Source of the DNA: TPA_inf: Saccharomyces
Taxonomy: Eukaryota
Length of the DNA stretch: 64,000 bases
Direction of reading: 5' to 3'
Assembly (NCBI GenBank): GCA_000146045.2
Contig: BK006938.2
Span: 64,001-128,000, forward strand
In this document: piece after piece, positions 4,997 through 54,706 of the stretch
Numbering within the stretch: the stretch's first letter is position 1
How the letters are laid out: every line of letters starts with the position of its first letter
Translations under genes and position numbers: made by a program
Notes under the pieces: model-generated
What the model saw: only the letters and a program-made list of their open reading frames with translations
Database searches by the model: none
Told to the model about the DNA's origin: nothing

Positions 4997-6364
4997 TCAT
5001 AATGTAAAGGTGTCCTTGTAAAAACGTAACCGCTCATATTGTTTTATCTTTGACGCAAGTATTCGATTTTTTGCTCTTGCATAATCTGTCTCCAAGACAT
5101 TTCTCTGTAACATATCATTGCCCTCATCATGACATCTTTCCTGATTGCTGTTCATGCGTTTTTTAGAATTGTGAAAATTGTCGGTAGACCTGCTGCTTCT
5201 TTCCACGCGATTTACATGAATGCTCGGTTCGCCGTTTATGCACAGACTAGTGTCAGTACTGTCGAACTCGGTAAGGTTTCTATCTTCCATATCTACGTCA
5301 CTAGTATTATCACCTGAAAACATGCTTCCAAAGGAGCTTGTTTCAGTGCTATCCCCCCTTTGCGTATTGAGGCAGAACTGAGACCTTGTTGAACGGTTTT
5401 GATAGTCAATGTTTTTTTTATTTTCGTTGCTAACACGTTCACTGGTAGTAGCCAACTTAATCCTTGTTCTAACATTTTTGGAATCCATCAAATAGCTATA
5501 CTGCTTCATTGAATCGATCAATCTATTTAATGATATTTGTTCTGACTCATCATCCTCTATTACGCAATGTAAGTTTAACTTTGTTTCAAATAGCGCTCGG
5601 TTCAATTCTGAATCAAATATGATTGTTTCTAGTTCATAGTATGAAGTGGCACTATTATCATCACTTTTACTTTCTATTGTCCTAAATGCACCCATTCTTA
5701 AAATTTTATCTTCCAGACTTTTCAAGGGATCGACCACAATTGCGACATATGGATCTTGGAATCTCTGGTTCAAATCCTGGGTTTGGATATCTATATTACT
5801 TAACCAACAGTCGTAACCAGGATGTGAATGGAACCAGCCAACAACATTCAGTTTAGCGCCCTTGTAATCTCGCCCATCACCACCGTCATTATGATTATAC
5901 ATCTCGTCGATATATTGAACCATATATTCGTATGACTCCAATTGTGCATTTACGCGAGTTTCTGTCCCTACTACGGGAAGATTGAAACAATCCATTACAA
6001 CAATATTATCTTTTAATGTGAACCCCATTAATATGCCCATGATTTCAATATTTCCTCCACGAACTGCATAATGGGTGATCTTTTCACATGATAATTTTGA
6101 TATAAGTACGTGGGTGTAACTCGGAATATCTGTACTACTTTGTTGTTTTAGTTTAGTTTTGAGCAAGGAAGATTGGCTTAGCGCATGAAATTCAGGTTCT
6201 TGCGACGGCTTGAATCGCATACTTGATAGCGCTATAGATTCAGTTAGTTCATCTTCCACGGTGTACCTTTCCTTTAGTAGTTGTCGTAATTCCTTTACAG
6301 TCTTATTTGAAAGTGACATGCTGCCTCCTGCAGTTTTTATTGATTTTCGATCGTTGTTATTCAT
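4997..6364 (-). CDS. RRI1: RRI1/CSN5 (YDL216C), the COP9 signalosome JAMM metalloprotease. The open frame is 455 aa. The start I remember for the protein is probably the internal Met at 6319 ([13 protein letters not shown]..., 440 aa).
   Basis: The JAMM/MPN+ motif [18 protein letters not shown] is present. Which ATG is used is an inference from the protein length I remember. Confidence 0.88.
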
Positions 6365-6639
6365 TTTTAGTTTATTTGAAAAACCCTTTAATAAGAGCGC
6401 TTCCTGCGTAGCGCGCCTTTCCTAAAGTTTCAGCTGAAGCATGGCTCCCTGAGGAGAACTGCCTAGTATAATGGATAACTCGAAGGAAAAAATATCAAAT
6501 GCTTTTTTTAGATTAAAAATAATGGACATATAAACAACTTTACTTAGTACACAATAAAACGCTGAGAAGAACATACACATATGTTTAATTTTCTTTTCTG
6601 ACGGCAGAACTAATTTATACAAAACAATTTTATTGAAGC

Positions 6640-9600
6640 TCAAGCACTTGCCTCCGCTTCTCTTTTTAACCCACCAATAAATTCCAAGAATTTTCCAATG
6701 TTAACATCGATACCGTTCTGGTAAACAAAAGTGCTTGATAAGTAACTCGACAGAAGAACTTTCAAATAGCTCTCTGGAATGTTTTCCAATACGGACTGAG
6801 GCCCAGCAACATCAATCAGAATTTTTGGAATTATTTTATCCAACAATAGGTAGTTTCTTAATTTTAGATCATTGAGCCACAACTCTTGAGAAGCAACTAG
6901 ATCGTCGTTCAATTTGTTTATAGTGAAGGACAATTGGTTTGAAATTTCTGAAATGTGGGTTCCATTTAGTTGATTCAAATTCCATAACTGACCAAACTCT
7001 AATTCAGCATTTTTCTGAATTCTTGACTGCACTTCTACAACGTACGACTTGTACAACGCAGACCTCTCACCACTAACATCTCCAATAAATTTGTGCACGA
7101 AGTCGTTATCGTTAAGCGCTAGTGAGGCCAACACTTCCATTGATGAAGATGTGACACCACCTTTGTTTGCAGAAGCATCTTTGAACAGAATACAGCCATG
7201 TTCCTCCAAAGCATTTTTAGCAGGTTGCGTTATAAATAGATTGGCACCCTCCACAATATATGGAATTTTACATTTCCCAGTCTTTTCGTCAACAAAATAA
7301 TGTAGATTATTTAGAGTAATTGAGTTTGGTCTACCACCGCATGGAACAAAAATGTCGACATGATCCACAAATTTGAAAATTTGAGTATGAAAGGTGTTTC
7401 TGAAGGTTGTGCCGTTAGCTACAATTGTACCATTTGGTAGCATGATATCCATTGCATCCACAGAAACAAAAAATCCGTTGTTTGATAATTTGGAAGTGTC
7501 GAAATCGGAAATCATTTTCCTTTCATGTGCCAAGCGGCATAATTCATCTTTATCTAAACCTTTAGGATCACACAGGACACCTGAACCGTCCAGAATTGCC
7601 AAATAACATTCGTTTGGCGAAGATAAAAGAATTTCATTGGATCCCAAATCACCATCCGGACCACCAGTTTGGAATTTGTAAACAGTAGAATTTGTCAAGT
7701 TTAAAGTTTCGTAAATTTTATTAACATAAGCACGAACACCCAGAGAAGTCATACCATATTCGTCATGGGGAATACCACCCAAAGATGGGGATTTTCCAGT
7801 CAAAAATGATTTCCACCATGGGCAGTTCCTCACACGAGCATGGTTAGTTGCCCAATCCACGAAACCAGCAGTTCCTTCATCTGGGCCAAAAAATAATATT
7901 TCCTCCTTTGGTAAAAGGTTGACATAGTTTTCCTTTAATGGATCGTTGATTAGAATGTCAATCATTGCATCCACATATTGGGAAAAGGCGACAAATGTCT
8001 GGTCATGTTCTACCAATCCTGGGTTCAATAAGATGACACCTTTAGAGCCACCCTCTGGAATATCCTTATTTTTACGTTGCTGAGTAGAGGCCAATTGATA
8101 GTTCTCATCAATAACGTTCTTGGAATTCAAATCATAAATATCCTGATTCCTGGAACAGACTATACGAATACCGCCCCTTGCGATATCTCTGAACCTGATA
8201 TGGAACCCTTTGAAAGTATTACCAACGACAAAAAATATACCATAGGGTGTCTCTGGATATTCGAATTTTGTCATCACCAGGGAAGGATCTAATCTGAATG
8301 ATATTGCTACTTTTCTTGTAATAAAGAAATTTGTCTTCAAAATAGACTTGTTGAAGATGTTCAGTGTTTTCAGGATCAACAAATCAGGTGAATCATTTGG
8401 AATGAATTTATTCAAGTAAGCTTCGAACTCTTGGTCATTCTTAAAAGGCTCCACTTTTTCCAGTCTTTGAAAAGATAATGTCTTCTCCATATCTTTAGTA
8501 CTATTATGATAATAGTGAATTTGAGCAAAATTTTTATACAACTTGGAAATTATAGTGTAATGCTTCGACATGATGTTGATAATAGTTTGCTGAGTTAAGG
8601 TTTCATTTCTTAACTTTCTTTTTAGGTTTTCTACAATCTCCAAAAGAGTAGTATCATTACGCTTAATGGTGATTTGAGATAAAAGGTTTTGATAATCAGA
8701 GCCTAAACGATTAACAAAATGGTTAATGAATATAGCACCAATATGAGCATATATAGCTTCTTTGGGCGAGAATTGACGTCTCTGGTAAACCTCATGGAAA
8801 GAATTGTTTGGGATAGCGTATAGCAATGAAGCTTCTCTTTCAACCTGTTTCAATGCTGCCTCCACATCGTGAAGTAGAACATCTTCCAATTGCTGGTTCT
8901 CGTTCAAATAAACGGAAAAGATAATGATGTCATCATCCTTAACATTAAACGACTCTAAATAGAACTTAGAAGGTTTCAACTTGTAATAGTGGAACAAAGA
9001 GTTCAAAGCAGAGTAATAACGCTTAGTGGTGAATCGCTTGTAAGCGACTAATAACCTAATTTCATCCTTATTTTCTACGGAGCGAGTAGTCTTAATGACA
9101 GGACCTTCTCTTTCTTTAACCAACTTAAGTAAGAGACCGTATAGTTTTTTATTTTCGTTCGACGAAACTTTGTACATGGTCTTATCACTAATCGATTCAA
9201 TATCACCTTTCAGCAAATCCTGAGAGGAAATATCTACGCCGGCTGGATCATCATTAGGGTAAACACTCTCATAAACAAAAGTTAGCTTTAATTCGCTTTC
9301 TGGAGCCCAAAAAGAAACTAATCTGCAGTTTTTTTGAGACTTGTTATCCAGGAAAAGGTCATCAATTTCGGAATCTAATTCATAAGGTGGACAAGAATCA
9401 TCCATTTCAATCCTATTTTTTTTGATGGTATCCTTACCATGCTCCAAAGTATCGTTTCCGACGGCGTCACTAGCAAATTTAAAGTTTTTTTGCTGAGAAT
9501 CGCTTATGCTGACACCAGTATTAGATTCCATAAAGATGGCATGATTATCATTAGTTATAATTTTGTTTTTAATGCTGAATAGCCTTGGCTGAATTCCGTT

Positions 9601-9918
9601 GAATTTGGACTTCGCAAAGAAATCTAGCTTTGAAGCATACAAAGAATGTATGATATTCGAGATTAATTGGGGAGATTCTCTCGAGAAGAACAAATCGTCA
9701 ATACCCAATGAGTTATAAAACCAATCTACTTCTTGTTCGATCAAATCGTCGGGAATAAACCCTTGCTGATCTAGCAAATCTATCACTTCCTCTCTCTGCA
9801 GGTCCTTACCGGGAAAATCAAACACGTGATAGTCCGACATGGATGATATTGATAAAGAAGCAATATCTGGTGTGTTCAGTGAGTTTAAAGCACCGCGATT
9901 TTTGTTATCAAAAAGCAT
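6640..9918 (-). CDS. GDH2: GDH2 (YDL215C), NAD-dependent glutamate dehydrogenase, 1092 aa.
   Basis: The ORF is 1092 aa and belongs to the large NAD-GDH family. Its length and sequence are recognised from memory. Confidence 0.93.
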   Translation of the reverse strand: MLFDNKNRGALNSLNTPDIASLSISSMSDYHVFDFPGKDLQREEVIDLLDQQGFIPDDLIEQEVDWFYNSLGIDDLFFSRESPQLISNIIHSLYASKLDFFAKSKFNGIQPRLFSIKNKIITNDNHAIFMESNTGVSISDSQQKNFKFASDAVGNDTLEHGKDTIKKNRIEMDDSCPPYELDSEIDDLFLDNKSQKNCRLVSFWAPESELKLTFVYESVYPNDDPAGVDISSQDLLKGDIESISDKTMYKVSSNENKKLYGLLLKLVKEREGPVIKTTRSVENKDEIRLLVAYKRFTTKRYYSALNSLFHYYKLKPSKFYLESFNVKDDDIIIFSVYLNENQQLEDVLLHDVEAALKQVEREASLLYAIPNNSFHEVYQRRQFSPKEAIYAHIGAIFINHFVNRLGSDYQNLLSQITIKRNDTTLLEIVENLKRKLRNETLTQQTIINIMSKHYTIISKLYKNFAQIHYYHNSTKDMEKTLSFQRLEKVEPFKNDQEFEAYLNKFIPNDSPDLLILKTLNIFNKSILKTNFFITRKVAISFRLDPSLVMTKFEYPETPYGIFFVVGNTFKGFHIRFRDIARGGIRIVCSRNQDIYDLNSKNVIDENYQLASTQQRKNKDIPEGGSKGVILLNPGLVEHDQTFVAFSQYVDAMIDILINDPLKENYVNLLPKEEILFFGPDEGTAGFVDWATNHARVRNCPWWKSFLTGKSPSLGGIPHDEYGMTSLGVRAYVNKIYETLNLTNSTVYKFQTGGPDGDLGSNEILLSSPNECYLAILDGSGVLCDPKGLDKDELCRLAHERKMISDFDTSKLSNNGFFVSVDAMDIMLPNGTIVANGTTFRNTFHTQIFKFVDHVDIFVPCGGRPNSITLNNLHYFVDEKTGKCKIPYIVEGANLFITQPAKNALEEHGCILFKDASANKGGVTSSSMEVLASLALNDNDFVHKFIGDVSGERSALYKSYVVEVQSRIQKNAELEFGQLWNLNQLNGTHISEISNQLSFTINKLNDDLVASQELWLNDLKLRNYLLLDKIIPKILIDVAGPQSVLENIPESYLKVLLSSYLSSTFVYQNGIDVNIGKFLEFIGGLKREAEASA

Positions 9919-10445
9919 TCTTTATTCTTTTTATTGTTGTGAATTTAATATCCTTGTTTTGTATGTTTTGTTGAGATCGTGACAATCACAAAAAGGATTA
10001 TACCAAAAGGTAATGTATTTTTTAGAAACCGGTTGTTCTTATATAACAAGAATTCTGACTAAACAGCAGCAATGAGTAAACGCTTGTCAGTGTTGATGTC
10101 GACAGTATAACTTTTGTTATTGTTATTGATGCCGCCGTTGACTCGTAGTTACTTGTCCTACTCAACTATTAATGTGTATTTTTACCCCAATTGCTCCTTG
10201 TTGTGGCACGCCGTCAGGCAGTATTAAATTCGGTCCTGCGGAATCGCCGCACACATAGCCGCCAGATGGGTAACCCTTTTCAAGCGGACTTGGTTTTCCG
10301 ACGGTAAATAAATAAATAAATGACAGATTAGATTAGATATAGTCGTATTTTCACGTATATGTACCTATGGTTACAGTGCTGTAAGTATTACTTGCGTAAG
10401 TAAAAGCTGGAGCATATGGCCAGTATGACATTGCTATTCTTCCAG

Positions 10446-15293: not shown

Positions 15294-16427
15294 TTAAATA
15301 ATTTCTCTCAAAAAGCTATTGGTTTGCTGAATATTTGGCCGAGTAATAGTAGACGCACTGGAACTTGTTTCTTCAATGGATGACTCCGCAGATTCATTGT
15401 ATGACGATACGTATGAAAATCTCCCGGATTCGTGATCCGCCATCCCATAATAAGGATGTGCTATATATATACCGTCTGAGGAACTAGCTCTGTGTAAATC
15501 TCTACCATTTTCAAAGGAATCTCGTTTGCCCTCGCCGTTGGTTGTTACTTTATAATTAAGGACATTTAGGAACGGATTTGACGGTGCTTCTGTTTCTGTT
15601 ACCTCATCACAACTTACCCTCTTGCCAATATCATGGCTAAAGCCCTTTTTGCTGTGATTTTTCACGTTTCGTCTGTTTCTAATAATTATGAATCCGATAA
15701 AAATTACTATTACAACTCCAATGACAACTCCAACCGTAGAACCGACAATAACTCCGGTCCTTCTATTATTGGCATCTGAGGTATCTTGAGTGTTTAGTGC
15801 ACCAGATAGATATTGATAAAGTTTAGCATCCCCGGTAATGGTATTGGATGGAATGGTGAAAGTTAACGGAGGATTTGATTCTTGAAGCACAGTTGTTTGG
15901 GGAAAGTGGGTGTTAAATGTTGTCGATCGCTCTGTAAATTTGTATTCTTGGTCATAGATGATATAAACTGAGTTCTCGCTGGTGAATACGGAGTATATTT
16001 CCGATGTAGAGGTTGAGGTAAATGTTGTAGATAATGGTGTTGTTAGTTTAGTCGTCGAAGGCTCTATGGTTGGCACCTGTGAAGTAGTGAAAGTCTTCAA
16101 TGTACTTAACAGTCCTCTATCGATAGTGATATTGCTTTGAACAGAGGAAGTGCAATTGCTAACCAGATATTGTGGACTTGAAGTGTTGTTGCGGAAGGAA
16201 GTCGTACCATATGCGGTTGATATGGGGACCTGAATCGAACTTTCTAAACCCTCAATGAGGTTCGTCGTAATTGAGGATACAACCTCAGTGGATAATGCAA
16301 AAATGTGGTCTGTAGCTGATGATAAGCTGGCGGTTTCTGACGTGTCAATTTCACTCAGACTTCTGGATTGAGGTGTGCTTATGTATTGCGAAGACGTTAC
16401 ATTTAGTAGCATGGCGAAGTATCGCAA
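15294..16427 (-). CDS. YDL211C, a Ser/Thr-rich type I membrane protein reported to be vacuolar. The open frame is 377 aa, and the annotated start is possibly the Met at 16412.
   Basis: It has a long S/T-rich N-terminal domain, a single TM segment (GVIVGSTVGVVIGVVIVIFIGFIII) and a cytoplasmic tail. Confidence 0.75.
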   Translation of the reverse strand: MRYFAMLLNVTSSQYISTPQSRSLSEIDTSETASLSSATDHIFALSTEVVSSITTNLIEGLESSIQVPISTAYGTTSFRNNTSSPQYLVSNCTSSVQSNITIDRGLLSTLKTFTTSQVPTIEPSTTKLTTPLSTTFTSTSTSEIYSVFTSENSVYIIYDQEYKFTERSTTFNTHFPQTTVLQESNPPLTFTIPSNTITGDAKLYQYLSGALNTQDTSDANNRRTGVIVGSTVGVVIGVVIVIFIGFIIIRNRRNVKNHSKKGFSHDIGKRVSCDEVTETEAPSNPFLNVLNYKVTTNGEGKRDSFENGRDLHRASSSDGIYIAHPYYGMADHESGRFSYVSSYNESAESSIEETSSSASTITRPNIQQTNSFLREII

Positions 16428-19281
16428 TAGAAAGAATTATCAAGATGCCTCGCGCCTTTTGAGGATGTAAAAATAAATCTTAACGTTCTATGAATTACTT
16501 TATTATCTCGAGCAGAACCATCTGAATTTTGTTTACGTTTAATCTATGAGAAATTTCTCTGACGCGAAATCTTTCACGTATTTTTAGAGCGCCCGCCCAA
16601 GGTAACATACAATACGGTTGATATCTCCTAGTTTGATGCGGTTAGTGAAATTAATATAATGAACTAATATACTCTTTTTTTTGTAAAATATGTACTTGAG
16701 CTGCTGCATTCTTCTTCCATCGTCCAGTGATATCGGTAAACCGGTAGCTTTTTCTTAACTTTGAACAAAGAAGAGATAACTACGGACCCTTCTCCACGTT
16801 TCGATCTTTGGCTTCACTTCCTCATAGCCTGTATTTGAATCTAGCAGGTGTAATATTGTGGAAGAATGAAAACAGTATTTTTAATGGATTACTAAGGCAT
16901 ATTTAATGCGTTGTCAAGGAGGATGCTTGCACTGCAAAAACGATACATAAGTTAGCATGGGAATTTCATTAATGAAAGAATAAATGCACCGAAACAAAAT
17001 CATGAATTAATTGTGGTTTCAGAATAATGAAAAATCCATTGGCTGTTCCTGTTCCTATGTGAATGGTTCATCTCTGCCATAATAATTACTATTTTGTTTA
17101 AAGAGTCTTTACTAGATATTGCCGTTCACCTTTTGCCTACGAGCTAGCGATAGAGATTTCTGTATGGTATCTGACTTGACATAATGTCCGACATCCCGTT
17201 GAAGATATCAAACAATACATGACAAAGGTCGGGCATTAATCTGCTCAAACATTAATTCTTTAAACCTATCTCGATCATATCTAAGAAAGAAAAAAAACTG
17301 GCTTTTCGGTTCCTAGTGTTAACTCCAGTACCTGGTGTTGAGAAAAATTTACTATGTGGCCCGGCTAAGTAGTGCAATATTCTGGTACCATACTTCTAGA
17401 AATTTTTGCGCGATAACCTAGTGTTTTCTGACGAAGATTTTGGTGTCATTTGTATCTTCGTCGGTACAAAATGGTAATCATAGTATGTTTCCATGTTTTT
17501 GGACAAAAAAAAGAAGAAGGTAGCCAAAGAGCTGAATTTGCTATTCTTTTGTGATTATTGTGCGCAAAATAGTGACATTTTCTTTCTCAAATTAGTTACA
17601 CCCCGGATCCTAACCTTTACTGGCCTGTTGACGTTATTTGTTACGGGCTCAGCCCATCTGAGTAAATTTGGCAATTGTGTTCAAGTCAACGCCTGGAATC
17701 ATTCCCAGCGTTTTATTATGGACTGGGACTCTTGCAACTGTTCTACTGGCACAGTGGATTTATAGTGAACTGGATTTTTCAAAAATGGCTTCACTTTGAG
17801 AAACACTATTTACTATGTTTGTTAACTTCTTAACAGTGTGTATTACTTTTTTGCCATATTGATATTAAAAAAGTCATTTCGACTGCTGACAGAGAATACA
17901 ACTAGTAACTGGAGAGATAGCTGGTGCAGTGAGTGATTCCACATAATGCCAGACTTCTACTCGTCAGCCAGTTCGATTGTTGAGGAAACATAGCAAAGCA
18001 GTTAAGCTGTTTTATTTGTTGGCGAAATCGAACTTGTGAAAGTTGTGGGCTATCCTCGCTTTGATTACATGAGTAGAACCCAAGGATTTATGGAAAATTT
18101 GACTGGCTTCAAGATTTTTAAGGCAGTTCTATGAGATCACACACTTAATCCGCTTCCAGAATTTATTTTCTTTTTTTGATGATTTATGCTCAAGGAATTT
18201 ACCTGTTCTCAAGAATATGTTTTTAATTCGAAGCTTTGCGTATATGATGTTTATCAATAACGTGTGCATCGTCGATATCTCTTCGCTAACAAAAAGCAAT
18301 TTAAGTACCAAACAAACAGTAGTAATAGAGTGGGTCTACTTTGTCGATTGCCGTAGCAGGACATTTAACGCAAACGCTTCGGTAATCTGGTGAAATGATT
18401 GGATTAGGTGTTTTGTAAATTTTTTTTTTTTTTAGAAGATATTAATGCTGCATAGGGGAGAGATAAACGTCGCGGGAATTTGTGGCGGTGGAGCCCAGGT
18501 ACGTATTAATTTTGAATGGCGCAAATCTACTAAGTACGGTATCATTTTGATGTCGGAATACGGATAGTCAGTCCATAACTGCACCACCAATATTTTTCTT
18601 GCCGTTCTCATTTCCTGCACAGTTTCTTTGATTATGTTTGCAGAAGAATTTCTTTATCGTTTAGTCTAAACAAAGAATTCGTTGTAAAGAATTTGAGAGC
18701 GGATCTTGCATTTTTTATTTATCATGCTTATGTTTTTTCTTTGATGTAAGAAGAAGCAAGTAAGATATGTGAATATCTTATCACTAATTCAAATAACTAA
18801 GAGAGCTCACAACGACAATTTGTGACAGCATGCGAAGCAAAGAGCAGTGATACCAGTATCTTTCATCCAGTAATAACATACGACTGATGTTATAGTTAAA
18901 TGTTACATTTTGAGAGACTTCAACCTCTCGAAACCAAGAGGTTGGTTTTAACTCTGGTGACTTCAAGAAGGGTGGGTACCTTTTACAAAGCTTGAGACGA
19001 AGCAATAGTCAGTCTCTGTATAACAAGGAGACCACCTCATTTTCCAGTAACTCTTGAGGCATGTCGGATGGTTTGCCTTGAATAAACCGCAGTCATTATA
19101 ATGAATGGCCTGTACTTTCAAAACAGTCTGGAAACAGAAATCCATTGCTGAGGTACCTTTTAGTAGCACTTTCGTTAGTGAAGGTTTAAGGTTAGTTCTT
19201 ATTTACTGCACAAGAGTTTACATTTAACCACTCTAATAGTAACTGTTAGAGTGGTTTAACTGTTAGGTGATCTGTTCATTC

Positions 19282-19524
19282 CATTTTTCGTGTTGTATCT
19301 CAAGATGAGATAGCTTAGCGTTGCTACATACATAAATCTAAACATATAAACACCTGTGTAACTCGTTAACGTCTGGGCTTCCATGCTTCTACCATTTAGA
19401 ATGATGTAGACCATTTATTCCAAGAGGATAAGCACCCTCTGTGATTCAAAATGATAATAAGTGTTGACGACAAGTTACTCTCGCAGAATTGTTGTCAACA
19501 GTCTTGTATTAGTTGTTATCCAAC
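19282..19524 (+). mobile_element. Candidate degenerate Ty3 sigma-like solo LTR remnant. It would end ~23 bp upstream of the tRNA-Gly gene.
   Basis: The segment begins TGTTGTATCTCAAGATGAGATA, which resembles the sigma 5' terminus TGTTGTATCTCAAAATGAGATATG. It lies upstream of a Pol III gene, where Ty3 integrates. The interior is diverged and shorter than a 340-bp sigma. The identity is a judgement from memory. Confidence 0.3.
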
Positions 19525-19547
19525 GCTCCCGTTTTCAAGTTCACTTA

Positions 19548-19618
19548 GCGCAAGTGGTTTAGTGGTAAAATCCAACGTTGCCATCGTTGGGCCCCCGGTT
19601 CGATTCCGGGCTTGCGCA
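19548..19618 (+). tRNA. tG(GCC): tRNA-Gly (anticodon GCC), 71 nt, with no intron.
   Basis: The sequence is GCGCAAGTGGTTTAGTGGTAAAATCCAACGTTGCCATCGTTGGGCCCCCGGTTCGATTCCGGGCTTGCGCA. The A-box TGGTTTAGTGG and B-box GGTTCGATTCC are present. The acceptor stem GCGCAAG pairs with CTTGCGC. The anticodon loop is TTGCCAT. Confidence 0.95.
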
Positions 19619-19625
19619 AGTTTAA

Positions 19626-19633
19626 TTTTTTTT
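19626..19633 (+). terminator. RNA polymerase III terminator T-run immediately downstream of tRNA-Gly.
   Basis: A T8 run begins 8 nt after the tRNA 3' end. Confidence 0.8.
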
Positions 19634-19831
19634 CTTTTTCCACATTGTTTTCCACTTTGCACTCATTTCCAGTGTTTATTGTGAATGACAATTTCTTCAA
19701 TCATTGAAATGATTGATTTTTTGGGATCTATTTTTCTCTTTAGTGGTTACTGATCAGGCAACTCTATATCATTGTTTAACCGCGGCTTGCGTATCTTATT
19801 TTCTTTTTCCTAGGCATCTTACTAAGGTACT

Positions 19832-19859
19832 CTTATCGCTAATCGCTTATCGCTTATCG
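19832..19859 (+). promoter_or_regulatory. Cluster of four GATA-factor sites (CTTATC / CTAATC, i.e. GATAAG on the bottom strand) in the UGA4 promoter. This is the UAS-GATA bound by Gln3/Gat1/Dal80.
   Basis: The sequence CTTATCGCTAATCGCTTATCGCTTATCG lies ~420 bp upstream of the UGA4 ATG. Tandem GATAAG cores are typical of nitrogen-catabolite-repression promoters. Confidence 0.8.
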
Positions 19860-19865
19860 TGCGCC

Positions 19866-19884
19866 AAAAACCGCCGGCGGCAAT
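19866..19884 (+). promoter_or_regulatory. UAS-GABA, the Uga3 zinc-cluster binding site, in the UGA4 promoter.
   Basis: The sequence is AAAAACCGCCGGCGGCAAT. It contains the everted CCG-N4-CGG core characteristic of the GABA-responsive element shared by UGA1, UGA2 and UGA4. Confidence 0.8.
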
Positions 19885-20269
19885 TTCGAGATGTTTTATG
19901 TCATGTTGGATTTTGCAATCTATTACCATGGAGGTGAGGGCCTTCGATGGTCCAATACCGGTGCACGTACCCATGTACGTTTATCGAATAAGGGGAGAAC
20001 CTACTAATTTTAAGTCGGATAACGCGGCTTGGCACAGTAATCAGTTCCTTCTTTGGGTTAGAATCTTGATGTGAGATTGTGCTCAGTGATAATGATAGCG
20101 AATACGGCTTACTCTTGAATAACAAATGCATATATATTAAGAAGTAGTTCAAACGTATTCTGTTGACTGGCATGGTCCTTTCCTTCTTGTTGTGATTATA
20201 TAAAACAGTATAAGCTGTTTACTTCAGTTGTGAAGTGTAACAAGGTCTTATAATTTATTATTACTAACA

Positions 20270-21985
20270 ATGAGTATGTCAAGCAAAAACGAGAATAAGA
20301 TATCAGTAGAACAAAGAATATCCACTGATATCGGTCAGGCTTACCAGTTACAAGGCCTTGGGTCTAACCTAAGGTCGATTCGCTCCAAGACTGGTGCCGG
20401 TGAAGTGAACTATATCGATGCTGCTAAATCTGTAAATGATAACCAACTGCTTGCAGAGATCGGTTATAAACAAGAATTAAAAAGACAATTTTCAACATTA
20501 CAAGTTTTCGGTATTGCGTTCTCCATTATGGGTCTATTGCCCTCCATTGCATCTGTGATGGGTGGTGGGCTCGGTGGTGGTCCAGCAACATTAGTGTGGG
20601 GTTGGTTCGTTGCTGCGTTTTTCATTTTACTGGTGGGTATTACCATGGCTGAACATGCAAGTTCCATTCCTACCGCTGGTGGTTTGTACTACTGGACGTA
20701 TTACTATGCTCCAGAAGGTTATAAAGAGATTATTTCTTTTATTATTGGTTGCTCAAACTCCCTAGCGTTGGCAGCCGGTGTGTGTTCCATTGATTACGGT
20801 TTGGCTGAGGAAATTGCTGCTGCTGTCACATTAACCAAAGATGGAAATTTTGAAGTAACGAGTGGGAAACTTTACGGTATATTTGCTGGAGCAGTGGTGG
20901 TTATGTGTATTTGTACATGTGTTGCTTCTGGGGCCATTGCTCGTCTGCAGACGCTAAGTATATTTGCCAATCTTTTCATTATTGTTTTATTGTTCATTGC
21001 GCTACCGATTGGTACCAAGCATAGAATGGGAGGTTTCAATGATGGTGACTTTATATTTGGGAAATATGAAAACTTAAGTGACTGGAATAATGGTTGGCAA
21101 TTTTGTCTTGCTGGTTTCATGCCTGCTGTCTGGACTATTGGTTCCTTTGATTCATGTGTCCATCAATCTGAAGAAGCCAAAGATGCCAAGAAATCAGTCC
21201 CCATTGGTATAATCTCATCTATTGCTGTTTGTTGGATTTTAGGTTGGTTGATTATTATTTGTTTAATGGCCTGTATCAACCCTGATATTGACAGCGTTTT
21301 GGACTCCAAGTACGGCTTTGCTTTGGCTCAAATAATTTATGATTCGTTAGGAAAAAAATGGGCCATTGCATTTATGTCATTGATCGCATTCTGTCAATTT
21401 CTAATGGGTGCTTCCATTACCACAGCTGTTTCTAGACAAGTTTGGGCATTTTCCCGTGATAACGGTTTGCCCCTATCAAAGTATATTAAAAGAGTGGATT
21501 CTAAATACTCGGTCCCTTTTTTCGCTATTTTGGCTGCCTGTGTAGGTTCCTTGATTTTAGGATTGTTATGTTTGATTGATGATGCCGCCACTGATGCATT
21601 ATTTAGTCTGGCTGTTGCAGGAAACAATTTGGCATGGAGTACCCCTACAGTTTTCCGTTTAACATCAGGTAGAGATTTATTTAGACCTGGTCCATTTTAT
21701 TTGGGTAAAATCTGGTCTCCAATTGTTGCTTGGACAGGTGTTGCTTTCCAATTGTTCATTATTATTTTGGTTATGTTCCCCTCTCAACAACATGGTATTA
21801 CTAAATCCACAATGAATTATGCATGCGTTATTGGTCCCGGTATCTGGATCCTTGCAGGTATCTACTACAAAGTTTACAAGAAGAAATACTACCACGGTCC
21901 AGCAACCAATTTGTCGGATGATGATTATACTGAAGCCGTTGGTGCTGATGTTATCGACACAATTATGTCCAAACAGGAACCATAA
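20270..21985 (+). CDS. UGA4: UGA4 (YDL210W), the vacuolar GABA / delta-aminolevulinate permease, 571 aa.
   Basis: It is a 571-aa polytopic APC-family permease. Its promoter carries UAS-GABA and GATA elements. Confidence 0.92.
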   Translation: MSMSSKNENKISVEQRISTDIGQAYQLQGLGSNLRSIRSKTGAGEVNYIDAAKSVNDNQLLAEIGYKQELKRQFSTLQVFGIAFSIMGLLPSIASVMGGGLGGGPATLVWGWFVAAFFILLVGITMAEHASSIPTAGGLYYWTYYYAPEGYKEIISFIIGCSNSLALAAGVCSIDYGLAEEIAAAVTLTKDGNFEVTSGKLYGIFAGAVVVMCICTCVASGAIARLQTLSIFANLFIIVLLFIALPIGTKHRMGGFNDGDFIFGKYENLSDWNNGWQFCLAGFMPAVWTIGSFDSCVHQSEEAKDAKKSVPIGIISSIAVCWILGWLIIICLMACINPDIDSVLDSKYGFALAQIIYDSLGKKWAIAFMSLIAFCQFLMGASITTAVSRQVWAFSRDNGLPLSKYIKRVDSKYSVPFFAILAACVGSLILGLLCLIDDAATDALFSLAVAGNNLAWSTPTVFRLTSGRDLFRPGPFYLGKIWSPIVAWTGVAFQLFIIILVMFPSQQHGITKSTMNYACVIGPGIWILAGIYYKVYKKKYYHGPATNLSDDDYTEAVGADVIDTIMSKQEP

Positions 21986-52866: not shown

Positions 52867-53369
52867 AAATTCTAGAATATGGATCAAATACGCTTGTATA
52901 AACTAAATGAAACATAAAGATTAAGAACTTAAGAGGCCAACGTCGATGGATTTATTGACGATCACCAGCCAACACATATAGATTTTAGTGTAAAAGCAAT
53001 AAAAACCAAGATAATAAAATAAAAAAATACTGAAGAAGCCTAACTAGTATAAACTACTTTAACTAATAATGGCAATTTGATATAGAAACAAAGAAACATG
53101 ATATATTTAGGATATTATACAACGCATTTTCATTTGTTTTACAGCACCCCTGCGTGAATCATATATTGACGTTTCGCTCTCAGGTCCACCGTGTTCTCAA
53201 AAGATACTTTTAAAACCTAAAACACACGAAATCATATTATGATAATTCAGAATGATAGTGTGGTACTGTGTCAATTGACTGTTCAAGACTGAAGAGGATC
53301 TTTGATTTGTTGTTACTCAACAAATAATCTTCACGAAAACTTTCTCAATCTGGGGACTGTATTAATCTC

Positions 53370-53399
53370 AGACCCATACATATCTACACCCATAACTTT
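53370..53399 (+). promoter_or_regulatory. Two tandem Rap1-binding-site-like elements in the RPL35A promoter, ~270-295 bp upstream of the ATG.
   Basis: The two sequences AGACCCATACATA and ACACCCATAACTT match the ACACCCRYACAYM family. Paired Rap1 sites are typical of ribosomal-protein gene promoters. Confidence 0.65.
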
Positions 53400-53663
53400 T
53401 TACATTTAATTTTTTATCACATAATAGGTAGCTTAAATTGTAAAGTCGCAAAAAAAAATGGCAGCGCAGCCTCTCCGGGTGAACCCCACGACAACTTACC
53501 TGGCACTCCATGCACTAACGGGCGGGTTTGGGCAGGATTCCAGCATCAATTTTGCAAAATTCACACCTGAGTAATTCATATATGTAATATAATGTTAAGC
53601 ATACGCTGTCGATTAGCACTATTATTGACCGTAGAATAGGTACAGTGAGACAGTATATTCGAA

Positions 53664-54517
53664 ATGGTATGTTTGAGATGAACAAAATAATAAAGACTGA
53701 CAACTGCAGAACAGAGAGGATCATAGCAACCTAGTGCAAGAAAGAGCCTCGAAGCGTTAAACTTTTGGAACGTAATTCATCCGTTGGCTATGTCTATTCA
53801 ATACAGTTAGAATACGAAAGCTGTAATCAAGTATATCGGATTATTCGCAAGCAAAGAATCAAGGAAAAGAAAGTGAAAATAGCATACATCTTTAAATTCA
53901 GAGGTTTTGCTGAATTTTAATAGGGAAGTTTACGTTATGATTGTTGGCCGTAGATCGCCTAGCGTTTGACCAAATTTAATTCTCCTAATTTTTTTATTGT
54001 AAAAAAGCCTTCCAACGAAATAAATTAGTTATTGGTTTTTTTTCTCTGTTACGAGGGATATATGATGCCTGTGCTTGTTAGTTCATTATAAGTGCTAATA
54101 AAATACTAACGTTAATAAAAATTTGGAATATTATTTCATTTTTTATCCTATTAATAGGCCGGTGTTAAAGCTTACGAACTAAGAACCAAATCCAAGGAAC
54201 AATTGGCTTCTCAATTGGTTGACTTGAAAAAGGAGTTGGCTGAATTGAAGGTCCAAAAGTTGTCCAGACCATCTTTGCCAAAGATCAAGACCGTCAGAAA
54301 GAGTATCGCCTGTGTCTTGACCGTCATCAACGAACAACAAAGAGAAGCTGTTAGACAATTATACAAGGGTAAGAAGTACCAACCAAAGGACTTGAGAGCC
54401 AAGAAGACCAGAGCTTTGAGAAGAGCTTTGACCAAATTCGAAGCTTCCCAAGTTACCGAAAAGCAAAGAAAGAAGCAAATCGCTTTCCCACAAAGAAAGT
54501 ACGCTATTAAGGCTTAA
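53664..54517 (+). CDS. RPL35A: RPL35A (YDL191W), ribosomal protein L35 (uL29), 120 aa. It is a spliced CDS: join(53664..53666,54158..54517), and exon 1 is the ATG alone.
   Basis: The ATG is followed immediately by a GTATGT donor at 53667. A TACTAAC branch point lies at 54104-54110 and the acceptor TTAATAG ends at 54157. Exon 2 encodes AGVKAYELRTKSKEQLASQLVDLKKELAELKVQK...KYAIKA. Confidence 0.88.
53667..54157 (+). other. RPL35A: Spliceosomal intron of RPL35A (491 nt).
   Basis: It has the GTATGT ... TACTAAC ... AG signals. The distance from branch point to acceptor is ~47 nt. Confidence 0.85.
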
Positions 54518-54706
54518 TTGGAAGTTCAATTATATACTATCATTATCTATAGTTCCAACTTTTCTACGTTTTTCTAGCACCTTTTAAATAATTGTTAAAT
54601 TAAAACATTTTCATCGAAAATCTTCAAAATATAAGACACATTGAGCGATGAAATAAGCCTTATTTGATTAGGGTCAATTTTGCAATTTATTCTATCACTT
54701 ATTCAT

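Follow-up and report, generated by a model that had tools for sequence, protein, structure and literature searches.

The gene-free tract and its neighbours

The window, that is, the whole stretch of DNA that was analysed (64,000 nucleotides), corresponds to S. cerevisiae chrIV 64001-128000, as given by its gene order and protein identities. Adding 64000 to a window position yields the chrIV coordinate, in exact agreement with the positions of Carr et al. 2012. An ORF-free tract of 3135 bp (16413-19547) lies between YDL211C, whose start codon is at 16412 on the minus strand, and the tRNA-Gly(GCC) gene followed by UGA4. It contains no ORF longer than 90 codons, also when GTG and TTG starts are allowed, and no other gap in the window comes near it in length. 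The other gaps between ORFs of at least 150 aa measure 0.08-0.84 kb, with the interval 52867-54706 as the sole exception. That interval contains a split RPL35-like gene. The preliminary description of this DNA had pointed to the long ORF-free tract and to the shorter spacing elsewhere, and both observations hold.

The tRNA-Gly(GCC) gene occupies 19548-19618 on the plus strand (ARAGORN; Rfam, 60.3 bits). It is 100% identical to the S. paradoxus copy, and its position is kept in 6/6 species. As a tRNA gene, it attracts Ty integration. Its 5' flank (19526-19547, plus strand), about 22 bp between the inferred end of an LTR and the mature tRNA 5' end, contains the expected Pol III start region and is the target of the Ty3 family. 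The tRNA is the only Rfam family in the tract region, at both the gathering and the E <= 1 thresholds.

We found no literature on this tRNA gene or on the intergenic region. The sole publication on the tract came via YDL211C. In it, one laboratory used the site for insertion and called it a 'nontranscribed intergenic region', which is the wording of one paper on its insertion site. Non-coding transcription units had been suggested for the tract. Neither an Rfam family nor a conserved RNA structure speaks for them, and the one paper describes the site as nontranscribed.

Next to YDL211C, a seven-species alignment with a scan for invariant blocks delimits the proximal promoter (16413-16650, minus strand). 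The element TGACGCGAA at 16560-16568 is invariant in 7/7 species. TGTTTAC at 16530-16536 is conserved and reads GTAAACA on the YDL211C strand. By resemblance to consensus motifs, the former would be MCB/SCB-like and the latter of the forkhead type.

Beyond the promoter, spacer A (16651-18380) is ORF-free, colinear in all Saccharomyces species and devoid of LTR, Pfam and Rfam matches. Its identity between S. cerevisiae and S. paradoxus is 0.736 (1683 ungapped sites). The neutral benchmark, from 1402 four-fold degenerate sites of the flanking genes, is 0.744. Judged by this comparison, spacer A evolves at the neutral rate of synonymous sites. S. uvarum and S. eubayanus miss about 450 bp within it. 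Across six species, the gap between YDL211C and UGA4 ranges from 3.45 to 4.71 kb.

Closer to the tRNA gene, spacer B (18701-19291) forms the outer part of a turnover zone. It aligns only with S. paradoxus (identity 0.705). In blastn, similarity to S. kudriavzevii, S. arboricola, S. uvarum and S. eubayanus ends at about 18780. The equivalent zone of these four species carries different LTRs.

The Ty3p solo LTR and Ty turnover across species

The element beside the tRNA gene is located at 19292-19525 on the plus strand. Similarity searches identify it as a degenerate solo LTR of the Ty3 superfamily, most closely of the Ty3p family and not Ty3 sigma. Using blastn, we matched positions 1-75 of the Ty3p LTR (79%, E 3e-12) and positions 152-308 (66%, E 1.6e-10). 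The similarity to Ty3 sigma is weak (E 1e-3) and limited to positions 1-73. In the whole 64 kb, the significant LTR matches are to Ty3p and Ty3 only, and all of them fall within 19291-19482. The 5' terminus, TGTTGTATCTCAAGATGAGATA, begins at 19292 and agrees with the 5' end of the Ty3/Ty3p LTRs at 21/22 positions. The canonical termini are 5' TGTTGTATCTCAAAATGAGATA and 3' ...GTAATACAACA. At the 3' end the element is decayed, and the best candidate is TTATCCAACG against the canonical GTAATACAACA. It is a truncated member of the family, with a length of about 234 bp against 340-365 bp for a full LTR. The missing part covers about 104 bp, approximately Ty3p positions 45-148. At a divergence of about 35%, a recognisable 5-bp target-site duplication is not expected, and none is seen on the flanks.

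This LTR is already known. Carr et al. 2012 list it as chrIV_s51+_TY3_1p at chrIV:83292-83483 (window 19292-19483), solo, inactive and fixed in 23/23 strains. We also found it in 8/8 further strain assemblies. Beyond that annotation, the decayed 3' part probably runs to about 19525, as the alignment suggests. The decay is too strong for exact placement of this end. By alignment, it lies about 22 bp before the tRNA gene, whereas the published RepeatMasker annotation ends 64 bp before it. The distance of about 22 bp fits the position expected for the Ty3 family, as taken from a review.

The preliminary description had placed a Ty3 sigma-like LTR here. A solo LTR does stand at the expected position, but its family is Ty3p (E 3e-12) and not sigma (E 1e-3). 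Likewise, the LTR-like 5' terminus is present, although it begins at 19292 and not at 19282. The suggested end about 23 bp before the tRNA gene is close to our alignment, but the 3' end is decayed and the published annotation stops earlier.

A three-way alignment shows that S. paradoxus carries the orthologous LTR with the same internal deletion of about 104 bp. Moreover, the LTRs of S. cerevisiae and S. paradoxus have 28 derived sites in common, against 6.9 expected (overlap P = 2e-6). Because the S. paradoxus element has the same deletion, the insertion appears to be older than the split of the two species. The identity between the two LTRs is 0.654, which is below the neutral benchmark. This high divergence may be due to alignment error in the decayed 3' part. 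In S. kudriavzevii, the candidate orthologue was rejected, as it is a different, Ty3-like 3' fragment. The shared Ty3p LTR and its deletion argue for the presence of Ty3p already in the common ancestor of S. cerevisiae and S. paradoxus. Such a presence bears on the horizontal-transfer scenarios left open by Carr et al. A term search in the main text of Carr et al. 2012 returned no mention of orthologous or shared insertions or of a common ancestor.

We searched for other families in 16413-19547 with one representative LTR per family, so very old LTRs, or families that S. cerevisiae lacks, would escape. For Ty1, Ty2, Ty4 and Ty5, the best E value was about 8. The same queries detect clear LTRs in the loci of other species, which indicates that the method works. 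From 8420 to 359317 on chrIV, the RepeatMasker re-annotation of Carr et al. 2012 lists no further fragment of a Ty element. Several decayed LTR footprints had been proposed for the tract; only one LTR was found.

The same locus in other species presents different remains. S. kudriavzevii has Ty1/2, Ty4 and Ty3 fragments near the tRNA gene. Two fragments occur in S. arboricola, one of Ty1/2 and one of Ty3/3p in inverted orientation. S. uvarum presents one Ty1/2 LTR and S. eubayanus a Ty4-like LTR. In six Saccharomyces species, all LTR debris lies at most 1011 bp from the tRNA gene and is lineage-specific. This zone agrees with the integration window of about 1 kb given in a review for Ty1/2/4, and with the preference of Ty3 for the transcription start site. 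The remaining 2.1-3.0 kb of the spacer have no LTR match or conserved ORF in 6/6 species. The locus is a clear example of how Ty turnover is kept within about 1 kb by a tRNA gene, with neutral drift in the remainder of a long spacer.

Ty3 is not supported as the cause of the tract length. S. uvarum is reported to be without Ty3, and yet it has a syntenic tract that still measures 2.8 kb. Over most of the tract, the lack of LTR similarity and the synteny with a species without Ty3 thus refute the LTR reading of the preliminary description by its own standard, but they do not do so at 19292-19525.

The hairpin insertion and the conserved island

Just upstream of the LTR, an inverted repeat is combined with a direct repeat (19226-19266). 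The arms, AACCACTCTAA at 19226-19236 and TTAGAGTGGTT at 19246-19256, form 11 perfect base pairs with a 9-nt loop. The inverted repeat had been described as perfect over 12 bp. The 9-nt spacer is correct, but the twelfth pair is a T/T mismatch. The interleaved direct repeat is confirmed, with copies of AACTGTTAG at 19241-19249 and 19258-19266. The 64-kb window contains one such hairpin against 1.0 expected in first-order Markov simulations (0.055 expected per 3.1-kb tract). At the scale of the window, the hairpin is no more than chance.

The whole arrangement goes back to one insertion of 17 bp (about 19240-19256). S. paradoxus does not carry this insertion, nor do two divergent assemblies of S. 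cerevisiae (L008 and L009). Six other S. cerevisiae assemblies have it, and one of them (L015) carries a SNP in the 9-nt loop. These eight assemblies replaced the SGRP alignments, in which the allele gave 4 exact matches, with gaps or Ns as the probable reason. Within the insertion, AGTGGTT repeats the upstream AACCACT in inverted orientation and is followed by a direct copy of TAACTGTTAG. From this composition, we infer that the insertion arose by template switch. A special role for the palindrome is not supported: it is a young, strain-polymorphic insertion with no sign of function.

A different pattern appears at 18381-18700, where we observed a conserved non-coding island. The identity between S. 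cerevisiae and S. paradoxus is 0.86, and it reaches 0.93 in the core (18440-18560), against the neutral 0.744 (P = 8e-8). The nearest ORF is about 2 kb away, and the island is kept genus-wide. Its motifs are AGGGG at 18454-18458, an invariant AGATAAA at 18461-18467 and GCGGGAATTT at 18472-18481. Each species has a single copy of the combination AGATAAA-N3-5-GCGGNAATTT, at a distance of 1.5-2.05 kb upstream from the ATG of YDL211C. Its first part, AGATAAA, is invariant and its second, GCGGNAATTT, conserved, so that motif-sized blocks stand above neutral conservation. It means that at least a part of the tract is under selection for function, and the island is probably a cluster of transcription-factor sites.

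No ORF in the island is conserved across the aligned species. No conserved RNA structure is present either: the RNAalifold consensus for 7 species is -4.4 kcal/mol, with a covariation term of +0.94 against the fold. Several candidates were rejected. One was a tiny spliced ORF (ATG at about 18446, GTACGT, TACTAAG, AG, stop at about 18672), whose ATG and frame are lost in S. kudriavzevii, S. uvarum and S. eubayanus. The small ORFs 18217-18393 (plus strand) and 18432-18620 (minus strand) are open in S. paradoxus only, with about 50% amino-acid identity, and broken elsewhere. The island is not a duplicate of the UGA4 UAS, as the local alignment score of 16 compares with a shuffle mean of 13, and 9/200 shuffles reach or exceed it. 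The assignment of GCGGGAATTT to Uga3 or Dal82 was also dropped. No usable motif was found for it in the literature, so that it is speculation.

Tentatively, the island could be a long-range regulatory module in which GATA sites are combined with sites of the zinc-cluster type. Its target might be YDL211C or, across the tRNA gene, UGA4, or it might drive an unannotated, condition-specific transcript. We consider this role possible but rather doubtful. If true, the 'silent' spacer would be silent in rich medium only. The island also offers a concrete and cheap deletion target.

Origin of the tract and comparison with known systems

We compared the gene order with two genera outside Saccharomyces. 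The YDL211C homologues of N. glabratus and N. dairenensis (E 3e-18 and 4e-9) are adjoined upstream by an AMPK1_CBM gene, which is of the CRP1/MDG1 type in both Nakaseomyces and Naumovozyma. Beyond it follow DCD1-like and RPC10-like genes in N. glabratus, and an RPC10-like gene and CHS7 in N. dairenensis. No tRNA gene was found upstream of the YDL211C homologue in these two species. We take CRP1, DCD1, RPC10 and CHS7 to lie together on S. cerevisiae chrVIII. CWC2 is not adjacent to UGA4 in N. dairenensis, and the CWC2 side was seen in this one outgroup genus. In Torulaspora (pre-WGD), a YDL211C-like gene was not called beside SHR3, which is uninformative.

Since Nakaseomyces and Naumovozyma have a CRP1/MDG1-type gene upstream of YDL211C, the tract marks an old break in synteny, one that was already implicit in the published order of ancestral genes. 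The relevant part of Gordon et al. 2009 gives this order as Anc_2.79, 2.80, 2.81. It assigns Anc_2.79 (YDL211C) and Anc_2.81 (YHR146W) to neighbouring genes in S. castellii and C. glabrata. The same pair is on different contigs in S. bayanus and on different chromosomes in S. cerevisiae. YHR146W is CRP1, the one of these genes that appears in that part of the source.

Taken together, the tract is quite probably a composite spacer of four layers (a junction, a Ty landing zone, drifting DNA and a recent insertion), and does not form one functional unit. In the lineage of Saccharomyces, an ancient rearrangement would have parted YDL211C from its CRP1/MDG1-type upstream neighbour, and the same event would have brought the tRNA-Gly gene and UGA4 next to it. 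This rearrangement may also account for the length of the tract. The tRNA gene would then draw Ty elements into the last 1 kb or so upstream, as the Pol III machinery tethers the integrases of Ty elements. These elements would insert, be reduced to solo LTRs by LTR-LTR recombination and decay, and therefore the debris differs from species to species. In S. cerevisiae, the one survivor is the Ty3p LTR. It would have integrated at the Pol III start before S. cerevisiae and S. paradoxus separated, lost about 104 bp internally and drifted since. The other 2.4-2.9 kb are unconstrained in sequence and drift at the rate of synonymous sites, except for the core promoter motifs of YDL211C (<200 bp) and the island of about 300 bp, about 2 kb upstream. 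The palindrome and the direct repeat go back to the recent insertion of 17 bp, probably by template switch.

About 2-3 kb of seemingly useless DNA keeps its approximate length genus-wide in a compact genome. Neutral drift and the rearrangement do not explain this genus-long retention of the spacer length.

The retained length speaks for an alternative reading, an extended regulatory region of the FLO11/HO/IME1 type. In it, the island would serve YDL211C or UGA4 as a distal UAS, or act as promoter for a condition-specific ncRNA, and the length would be maintained for regulation. Two further points go in the same direction: the conservation of the island core, and the GATA core that every species keeps together with a CGG-type motif at much the same distance to YDL211C. 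The UGA4 promoter uses four GATA sites beside a CCGCCGGCGGCAATTT element, so such a pairing exists locally. However, some 85% of the tract shows neutral drift, and a deletion of about 450 bp is tolerated in the S. uvarum and S. eubayanus spacer. The searches for Rfam matches and for a conserved RNA structure were negative, one paper calls the region nontranscribed, and a Pol III gene stands between the island and UGA4. Judged from these sequence data, we find this reading unlikely. The proposal of the preliminary description, that the whole tract is a graveyard of many superimposed and decayed Ty LTR footprints, is less probable still. A review describes tRNA genes as Ty hot spots, and two to five LTR fragments lie at this tRNA gene in other species. 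Spacer B matches S. paradoxus only and drifts slightly above neutral, as old insert DNA would. In addition, one contig of a third species (L002) stops about 2.5 kb upstream of its YDL211C orthologue, and its similarity to the window is lost near 18786; a repeat near 18786 would be expected to break such an assembly. Nevertheless, 16413-19290 has no similarity to Ty1/2/4/5 LTRs (best E about 8), and the published re-annotation is without another Ty fragment. From 16413 to about 18780, the tract is colinear in species with an entirely different LTR content, and the recognisable debris of all six species lies within 1 kb of the tRNA gene.

Two further readings have an even lower probability. A replication origin (ARS) would keep the tract gene-free, and the literature places origins often near tRNA genes and evolutionary breakpoints. 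The tract has six 10/11 matches to the ARS consensus and a T14 run at 18420-18433. Nevertheless, a perfect WTTTAYRTTTW is absent between 14329 and 40909, with all 7 copies of the window located elsewhere. The near-matches are all outside the invariant blocks, and the T tract is unconserved and varies in length among strains. The origin suggested earlier thus finds no 11/11 match in the tract, and we regard it as very improbable. The least probable reading sees the tract as what is left of a protein-coding gene that was lost with the rearrangement or later. A length of about 3 kb would fit one or two genes, and a breakpoint could have disrupted one. However, a six-frame Pfam scan of X-masked translations gave 0 hits at E <=1, and none of the ORFs of 50 aa or more stays open throughout, with breaks already in S. 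paradoxus or in the more distant species. There is no ORF here in 6/6 species, and the ancestral neighbour CRP1 survives elsewhere.

The composite spacer is the preferred reading, and the tract is ordinary and largely known: mostly neutrally drifting DNA, a rearrangement junction and one catalogued LTR. Yeast biology is little changed by it. The LTR was catalogued, the breakpoint was implicit in the published order, and the spacer has already served as a neutral site for insertions.

Compared with known systems, the element beside the tRNA gene is the same as chrIV_s51+_TY3_1p (Carr, Bensasson and Bergman 2012). Coordinates, sequence start, strand and family are identical, and there is no difference. 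It resembles Ty3 sigma, the 340-bp LTR of Ty3, in its 5' terminus (21/22), its position just upstream of a tRNA gene and its orientation with the tRNA. In contrast with sigma, it measures 234 bp and not 340 bp, and its similarity is limited to the first 73 bp (E 1e-3). The decay leaves no recognisable terminus on the 3' side, and a target-site duplication cannot be read either. Like the FLO11, HO and IME1 promoters, the locus presents a gene-free upstream region of about 3 kb and a conserved distal element. On the other hand, this tract is mostly unconstrained, and the sole publication found on it, via YDL211C, handles it as transcriptionally silent. [quoted passage not shown]

The tract and its solitary LTR

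The gene-free tract measures 3135 bp, from the start codon of YDL211C (16412) to tRNA-Gly(GCC) (19548-19618), its downstream boundary. Translated, the ORFs of the window form a series of proteins from the left arm of S. cerevisiae chromosome IV. The minus-strand ORF flanking the tract at 15294-16412 encodes a 372-aa Ser/Thr-rich membrane protein, with YDL211C of Saccharomyces species as closest database relatives. We take YDL211C to encode an uncharacterised vacuolar membrane protein. Beyond the tRNA, the plus-strand ORF at 20270-21985 encodes a 571-aa amino-acid permease with the sequence of UGA4, whose orthologues carry AA_permease domains. The longest ORF of the tract has 90 codons, with GTG and TTG starts included. 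ORFs of 150 aa or more are spaced 0.08-0.84 kb apart elsewhere in the window, with one exception, 52867-54706, so the unusual length noted in the preliminary description holds. This second-largest gap (1.8 kb) contains RPL35-like peptide matches on the plus strand at ~54167 and ~54296, as in a split gene. Hence, it probably houses an intron-containing ribosomal protein gene and is not empty DNA.

We searched the entire window by sensitive blastn with reference LTRs of Ty1, Ty2, Ty3, Ty3p, Ty4, and Ty5, taken from the supplements of Carr, Bensasson and Bergman (2012). Two segments match the Ty3p LTR: 19291-19366 (positions 1-75; 79%, E 3e-12) and 19340-19482 (positions 152-308; 66%, E 1.6e-10). 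They are the only significant LTR matches in the window. The LTR-like terminus reported earlier is present as TGTTGTATCTCAAGATGAGATA, but it starts at 19292, ten bases past the position first given. Alignment to the consensus suggests that the decayed 3' part runs on to ~19525, ~22 bp short of the tRNA, which fits the expected Ty3-type position. Thus, one Ty3-superfamily LTR does lie at the classic site, but its family is Ty3p; Ty3 sigma itself matches weakly over the first 73 bp (E 1e-3).

Carr et al. (2012) annotated chrIV:83292-83483 as chrIV_s51+_TY3_1p, opening with the same sequence as window position 19292, which places the window at chrIV 64001-128000. This solo element is inactive, has no SGD name, and proved fixed in each of the 23 strains that could be scored. 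From 8420 to 359317 on chrIV, their list contains no other Ty fragment. Ty1, Ty2, Ty4, and Ty5 LTRs gave chance-level blastn matches in the tract. The idea of several decayed LTR footprints is not sustained by either result.

In both S. cerevisiae and S. paradoxus, the Ty3p copy is missing the same ~104 bp relative to the consensus. Of the 238 columns aligned three ways, 36 are derived in both copies (20.6 expected, P = 2e-6). The derived state is common to both in 28, against about 7 expected under independent divergence. Given the common deletion and the excess of shared derived states, insertion and internal deletion are older than the split of the two species. A term search of the main text in Carr et al. 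(2012) for orthologous or shared insertions, or for a common ancestor, gave no match. These authors left undecided whether Ty3p of S. cerevisiae came by transfer from S. paradoxus or was inherited from the common ancestor. The chrIV_s51+_TY3_1p element favours the latter.

Variation among strains and species

Eight further S. cerevisiae assemblies were compared. All eight retain the LTR and a YDL211C-UGA4 gap of 3842-3857 bp, and no presence/absence polymorphism of the tract, considered in the preliminary description, was found among them. Two assemblies, GCA_903819155.2 and GCA_947370715.1, show 109 differences from the window per ~3850 intergenic sites (2.8%). The other six show 0-21 SNPs in this region.

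The inverted repeat described upstream of the LTR exists with its 9-nt spacer, but the perfect arms are 11 bp (19226-19236 / 19246-19256) and not 12. The direct repeat AACTGTTAG is present as claimed. First-order Markov simulations predict 1.0 perfect 11-bp hairpins (loop up to 30 nt) per 64 kb. The window contains one, so there is no excess over chance at this scale. The 17 bp at 19240-19256 are missing from the two divergent assemblies, which read ...AATAGTAACTATTAGGTGATCTG..., and from S. paradoxus. These two assemblies hold the ancestral state of the indel. Within the insert, AGTGGTT repeats the upstream AACCACT in inverted orientation, and a second TAACTGTTAG comes after it. Hairpin and direct repeat therefore arose together in one insertion. 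Template switching during replication may have produced it. The insertion is of recent origin, and nothing points to a function.

Orthologous regions were fetched with YDL211C orthologues as anchors in S. paradoxus, S. kudriavzevii, S. arboricola, S. uvarum, S. eubayanus, and one further species represented by a short contig. tRNA-Gly(GCC) and UGA4 are arranged identically in all of them, with a YDL211C-UGA4 gap of 3.45-4.71 kb. S. paradoxus and S. cerevisiae are colinear over the entire interval. The more distant species are alignable in the tRNA-to-UGA4 promoter (72-76%), a patch near 16530-16590, and ~18230-18780.

The same LTR library was run against each interval. LTR debris is recognisable in every species, is lineage-specific, and never lies more than 1011 bp from the tRNA. 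The Ty3p LTR of S. cerevisiae recurs in S. paradoxus. Fragments in S. kudriavzevii are of Ty1/2, Ty4, and Ty3 type, and S. arboricola combines a Ty1/2 fragment with a Ty3/3p fragment in inverted orientation. S. uvarum and S. eubayanus carry a Ty1/2 and a Ty4-like LTR, respectively. The S. kudriavzevii cluster (~6030-6976 of its locus) holds at least four fragments, Ty1/2-like, Ty4-like, and Ty3-like, less than 1 kb upstream of the tRNA, and is the source of the extra ~0.9 kb in that gap. Confinement to ~1 kb is as predicted by the published Ty1/2/4 integration window of ~1 kb at tRNA genes. LTR turnover explains the variable part of the tract, not the 2.1-3.0 kb adjoining YDL211C, where this library gave no match in any species. 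S. uvarum, reported to lack Ty3, still has a tract of 2.8 kb. The length is thus not owed to Ty3, although the Ty3p match itself stands. A stretch of ~450 bp (16863-17313) has no counterpart in S. uvarum and S. eubayanus, so part of the spacer nearest YDL211C is dispensable.

A conserved island in drifting DNA

Four-fold degenerate sites of eight flanking genes (1402 sites) served as neutral benchmark between S. cerevisiae and S. paradoxus, with an identity of 0.744. The spacers on either side of the island have identities of 0.736 (16651-18380) and 0.705 (18701-19291). The island itself (18381-18700) reaches 0.86, its core (18440-18560) 0.93 (P = 8e-8 versus neutral), and the tRNA-to-UGA4 promoter (19619-20269) 0.87. 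The orthologous LTR copies (19292-19525) diverged beyond the four-fold sites (0.654 vs 0.744, P = 0.001). Misalignment of the decayed 3' part, or a higher mutation rate beside the tRNA gene, could account for this excess.

Only two blocks of at least 7 bp are invariant across seven species, TGACGCGAA (16560-16568) and AGATAAA (18461-18467). The former lies in the proximal YDL211C promoter, beside a TGTTTAC conserved in the seven species (region 16530-16568). By consensus, we take the two to resemble MCB/SCB and forkhead sites. On this reading, YDL211C would be under G1/S (SBF/MBF-type) and forkhead control. In the island, AGATAAA is followed by GCGG-N-AATTT; each species has a single copy of this pair, located 1.5-2.05 kb upstream of the YDL211C ATG. 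Just upstream of the core, a T14 tract (18420-18433) differs in length by 1-3 bp in six of the eight other S. cerevisiae assemblies and is not conserved in other species. The UGA4 upstream element has four minus-strand GATA cores (CTTATC, CTAATC, CTTATC, CTTATC; 19832-19858), matching those in the published literature, and then AAAAACCGCCGGCGGCAATTT (19866-19886).

Other contents were weighed against the same DNA. For a gene relic, X-masked six-frame translations of the tract had no Pfam match at E <=1, and ORFs of 50 aa or more are all broken in S. paradoxus or the next species out. Non-coding transcription units had been suggested in the preliminary description. Rfam returned nothing but the tRNA, at gathering and E <= 1 thresholds alike, and no conserved fold was found in the island (consensus -4.4 kcal/mol over 279 columns). 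Within the neighbouring YDL211C ORF, the RNAz screen of Steigele et al. (2007) reported conserved RNA secondary structure with compensatory codon changes. The suggested replication origin has six 10-of-11 ARS consensus matches in the tract and no perfect one. Comparison with the UGA4 promoter ruled out the island as a copy of it. By the tests run, the tract outside its LTR is neither decayed LTR sequence nor an origin, and neither an RNA gene nor the remains of a protein-coding gene. Apart from the island, 2-3 kb of DNA that is otherwise unconstrained have been retained.

A junction of ancestral synteny blocks

Outgroup gene order was read by anchoring on SHR3 in other genera. YDL211C has homologues in Nakaseomyces glabratus (BLASTP E 3e-18) and Naumovozyma dairenensis (E 4e-9). 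An AMPK1_CBM-domain gene lies upstream of them, at 1.7 kb and 0.63 kb, respectively. Beyond it are DCD1-like and RPC10-like genes in N. glabratus, and RPC10-like and CHS7 in N. dairenensis. Neither upstream region has a tRNA gene. Upstream of SHR3, on its opposite side, N. glabratus has a 4-kb stretch without a called gene (6027-10000 of its locus), tract-like in size. CWC2 in N. dairenensis is followed by unrelated genes, not UGA4.

In the entries for these loci, the ancestral table of Gordon, Byrne and Wolfe (2009) gives Anc_2.79 as YNL176C/YDL211C and Anc_2.81 as YNL173C/YHR146W. Their copies are neighbours in S. castellii and C. glabrata, on separate contigs in S. bayanus, and on separate chromosomes in S. 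cerevisiae. Together, the outgroup order, this table, and the N. dairenensis CWC2 place the tract, the tRNA gene, and UGA4 at a junction of two ancestral synteny blocks, which is older than the divergence of Saccharomyces species. The tract is best described as old junction DNA in neutral drift, bounded by a normal promoter on the YDL211C side and a Ty landing zone on the tRNA side, and with a conserved island between. As such, the locus is an ordinary example of a breakpoint beside a tRNA gene.
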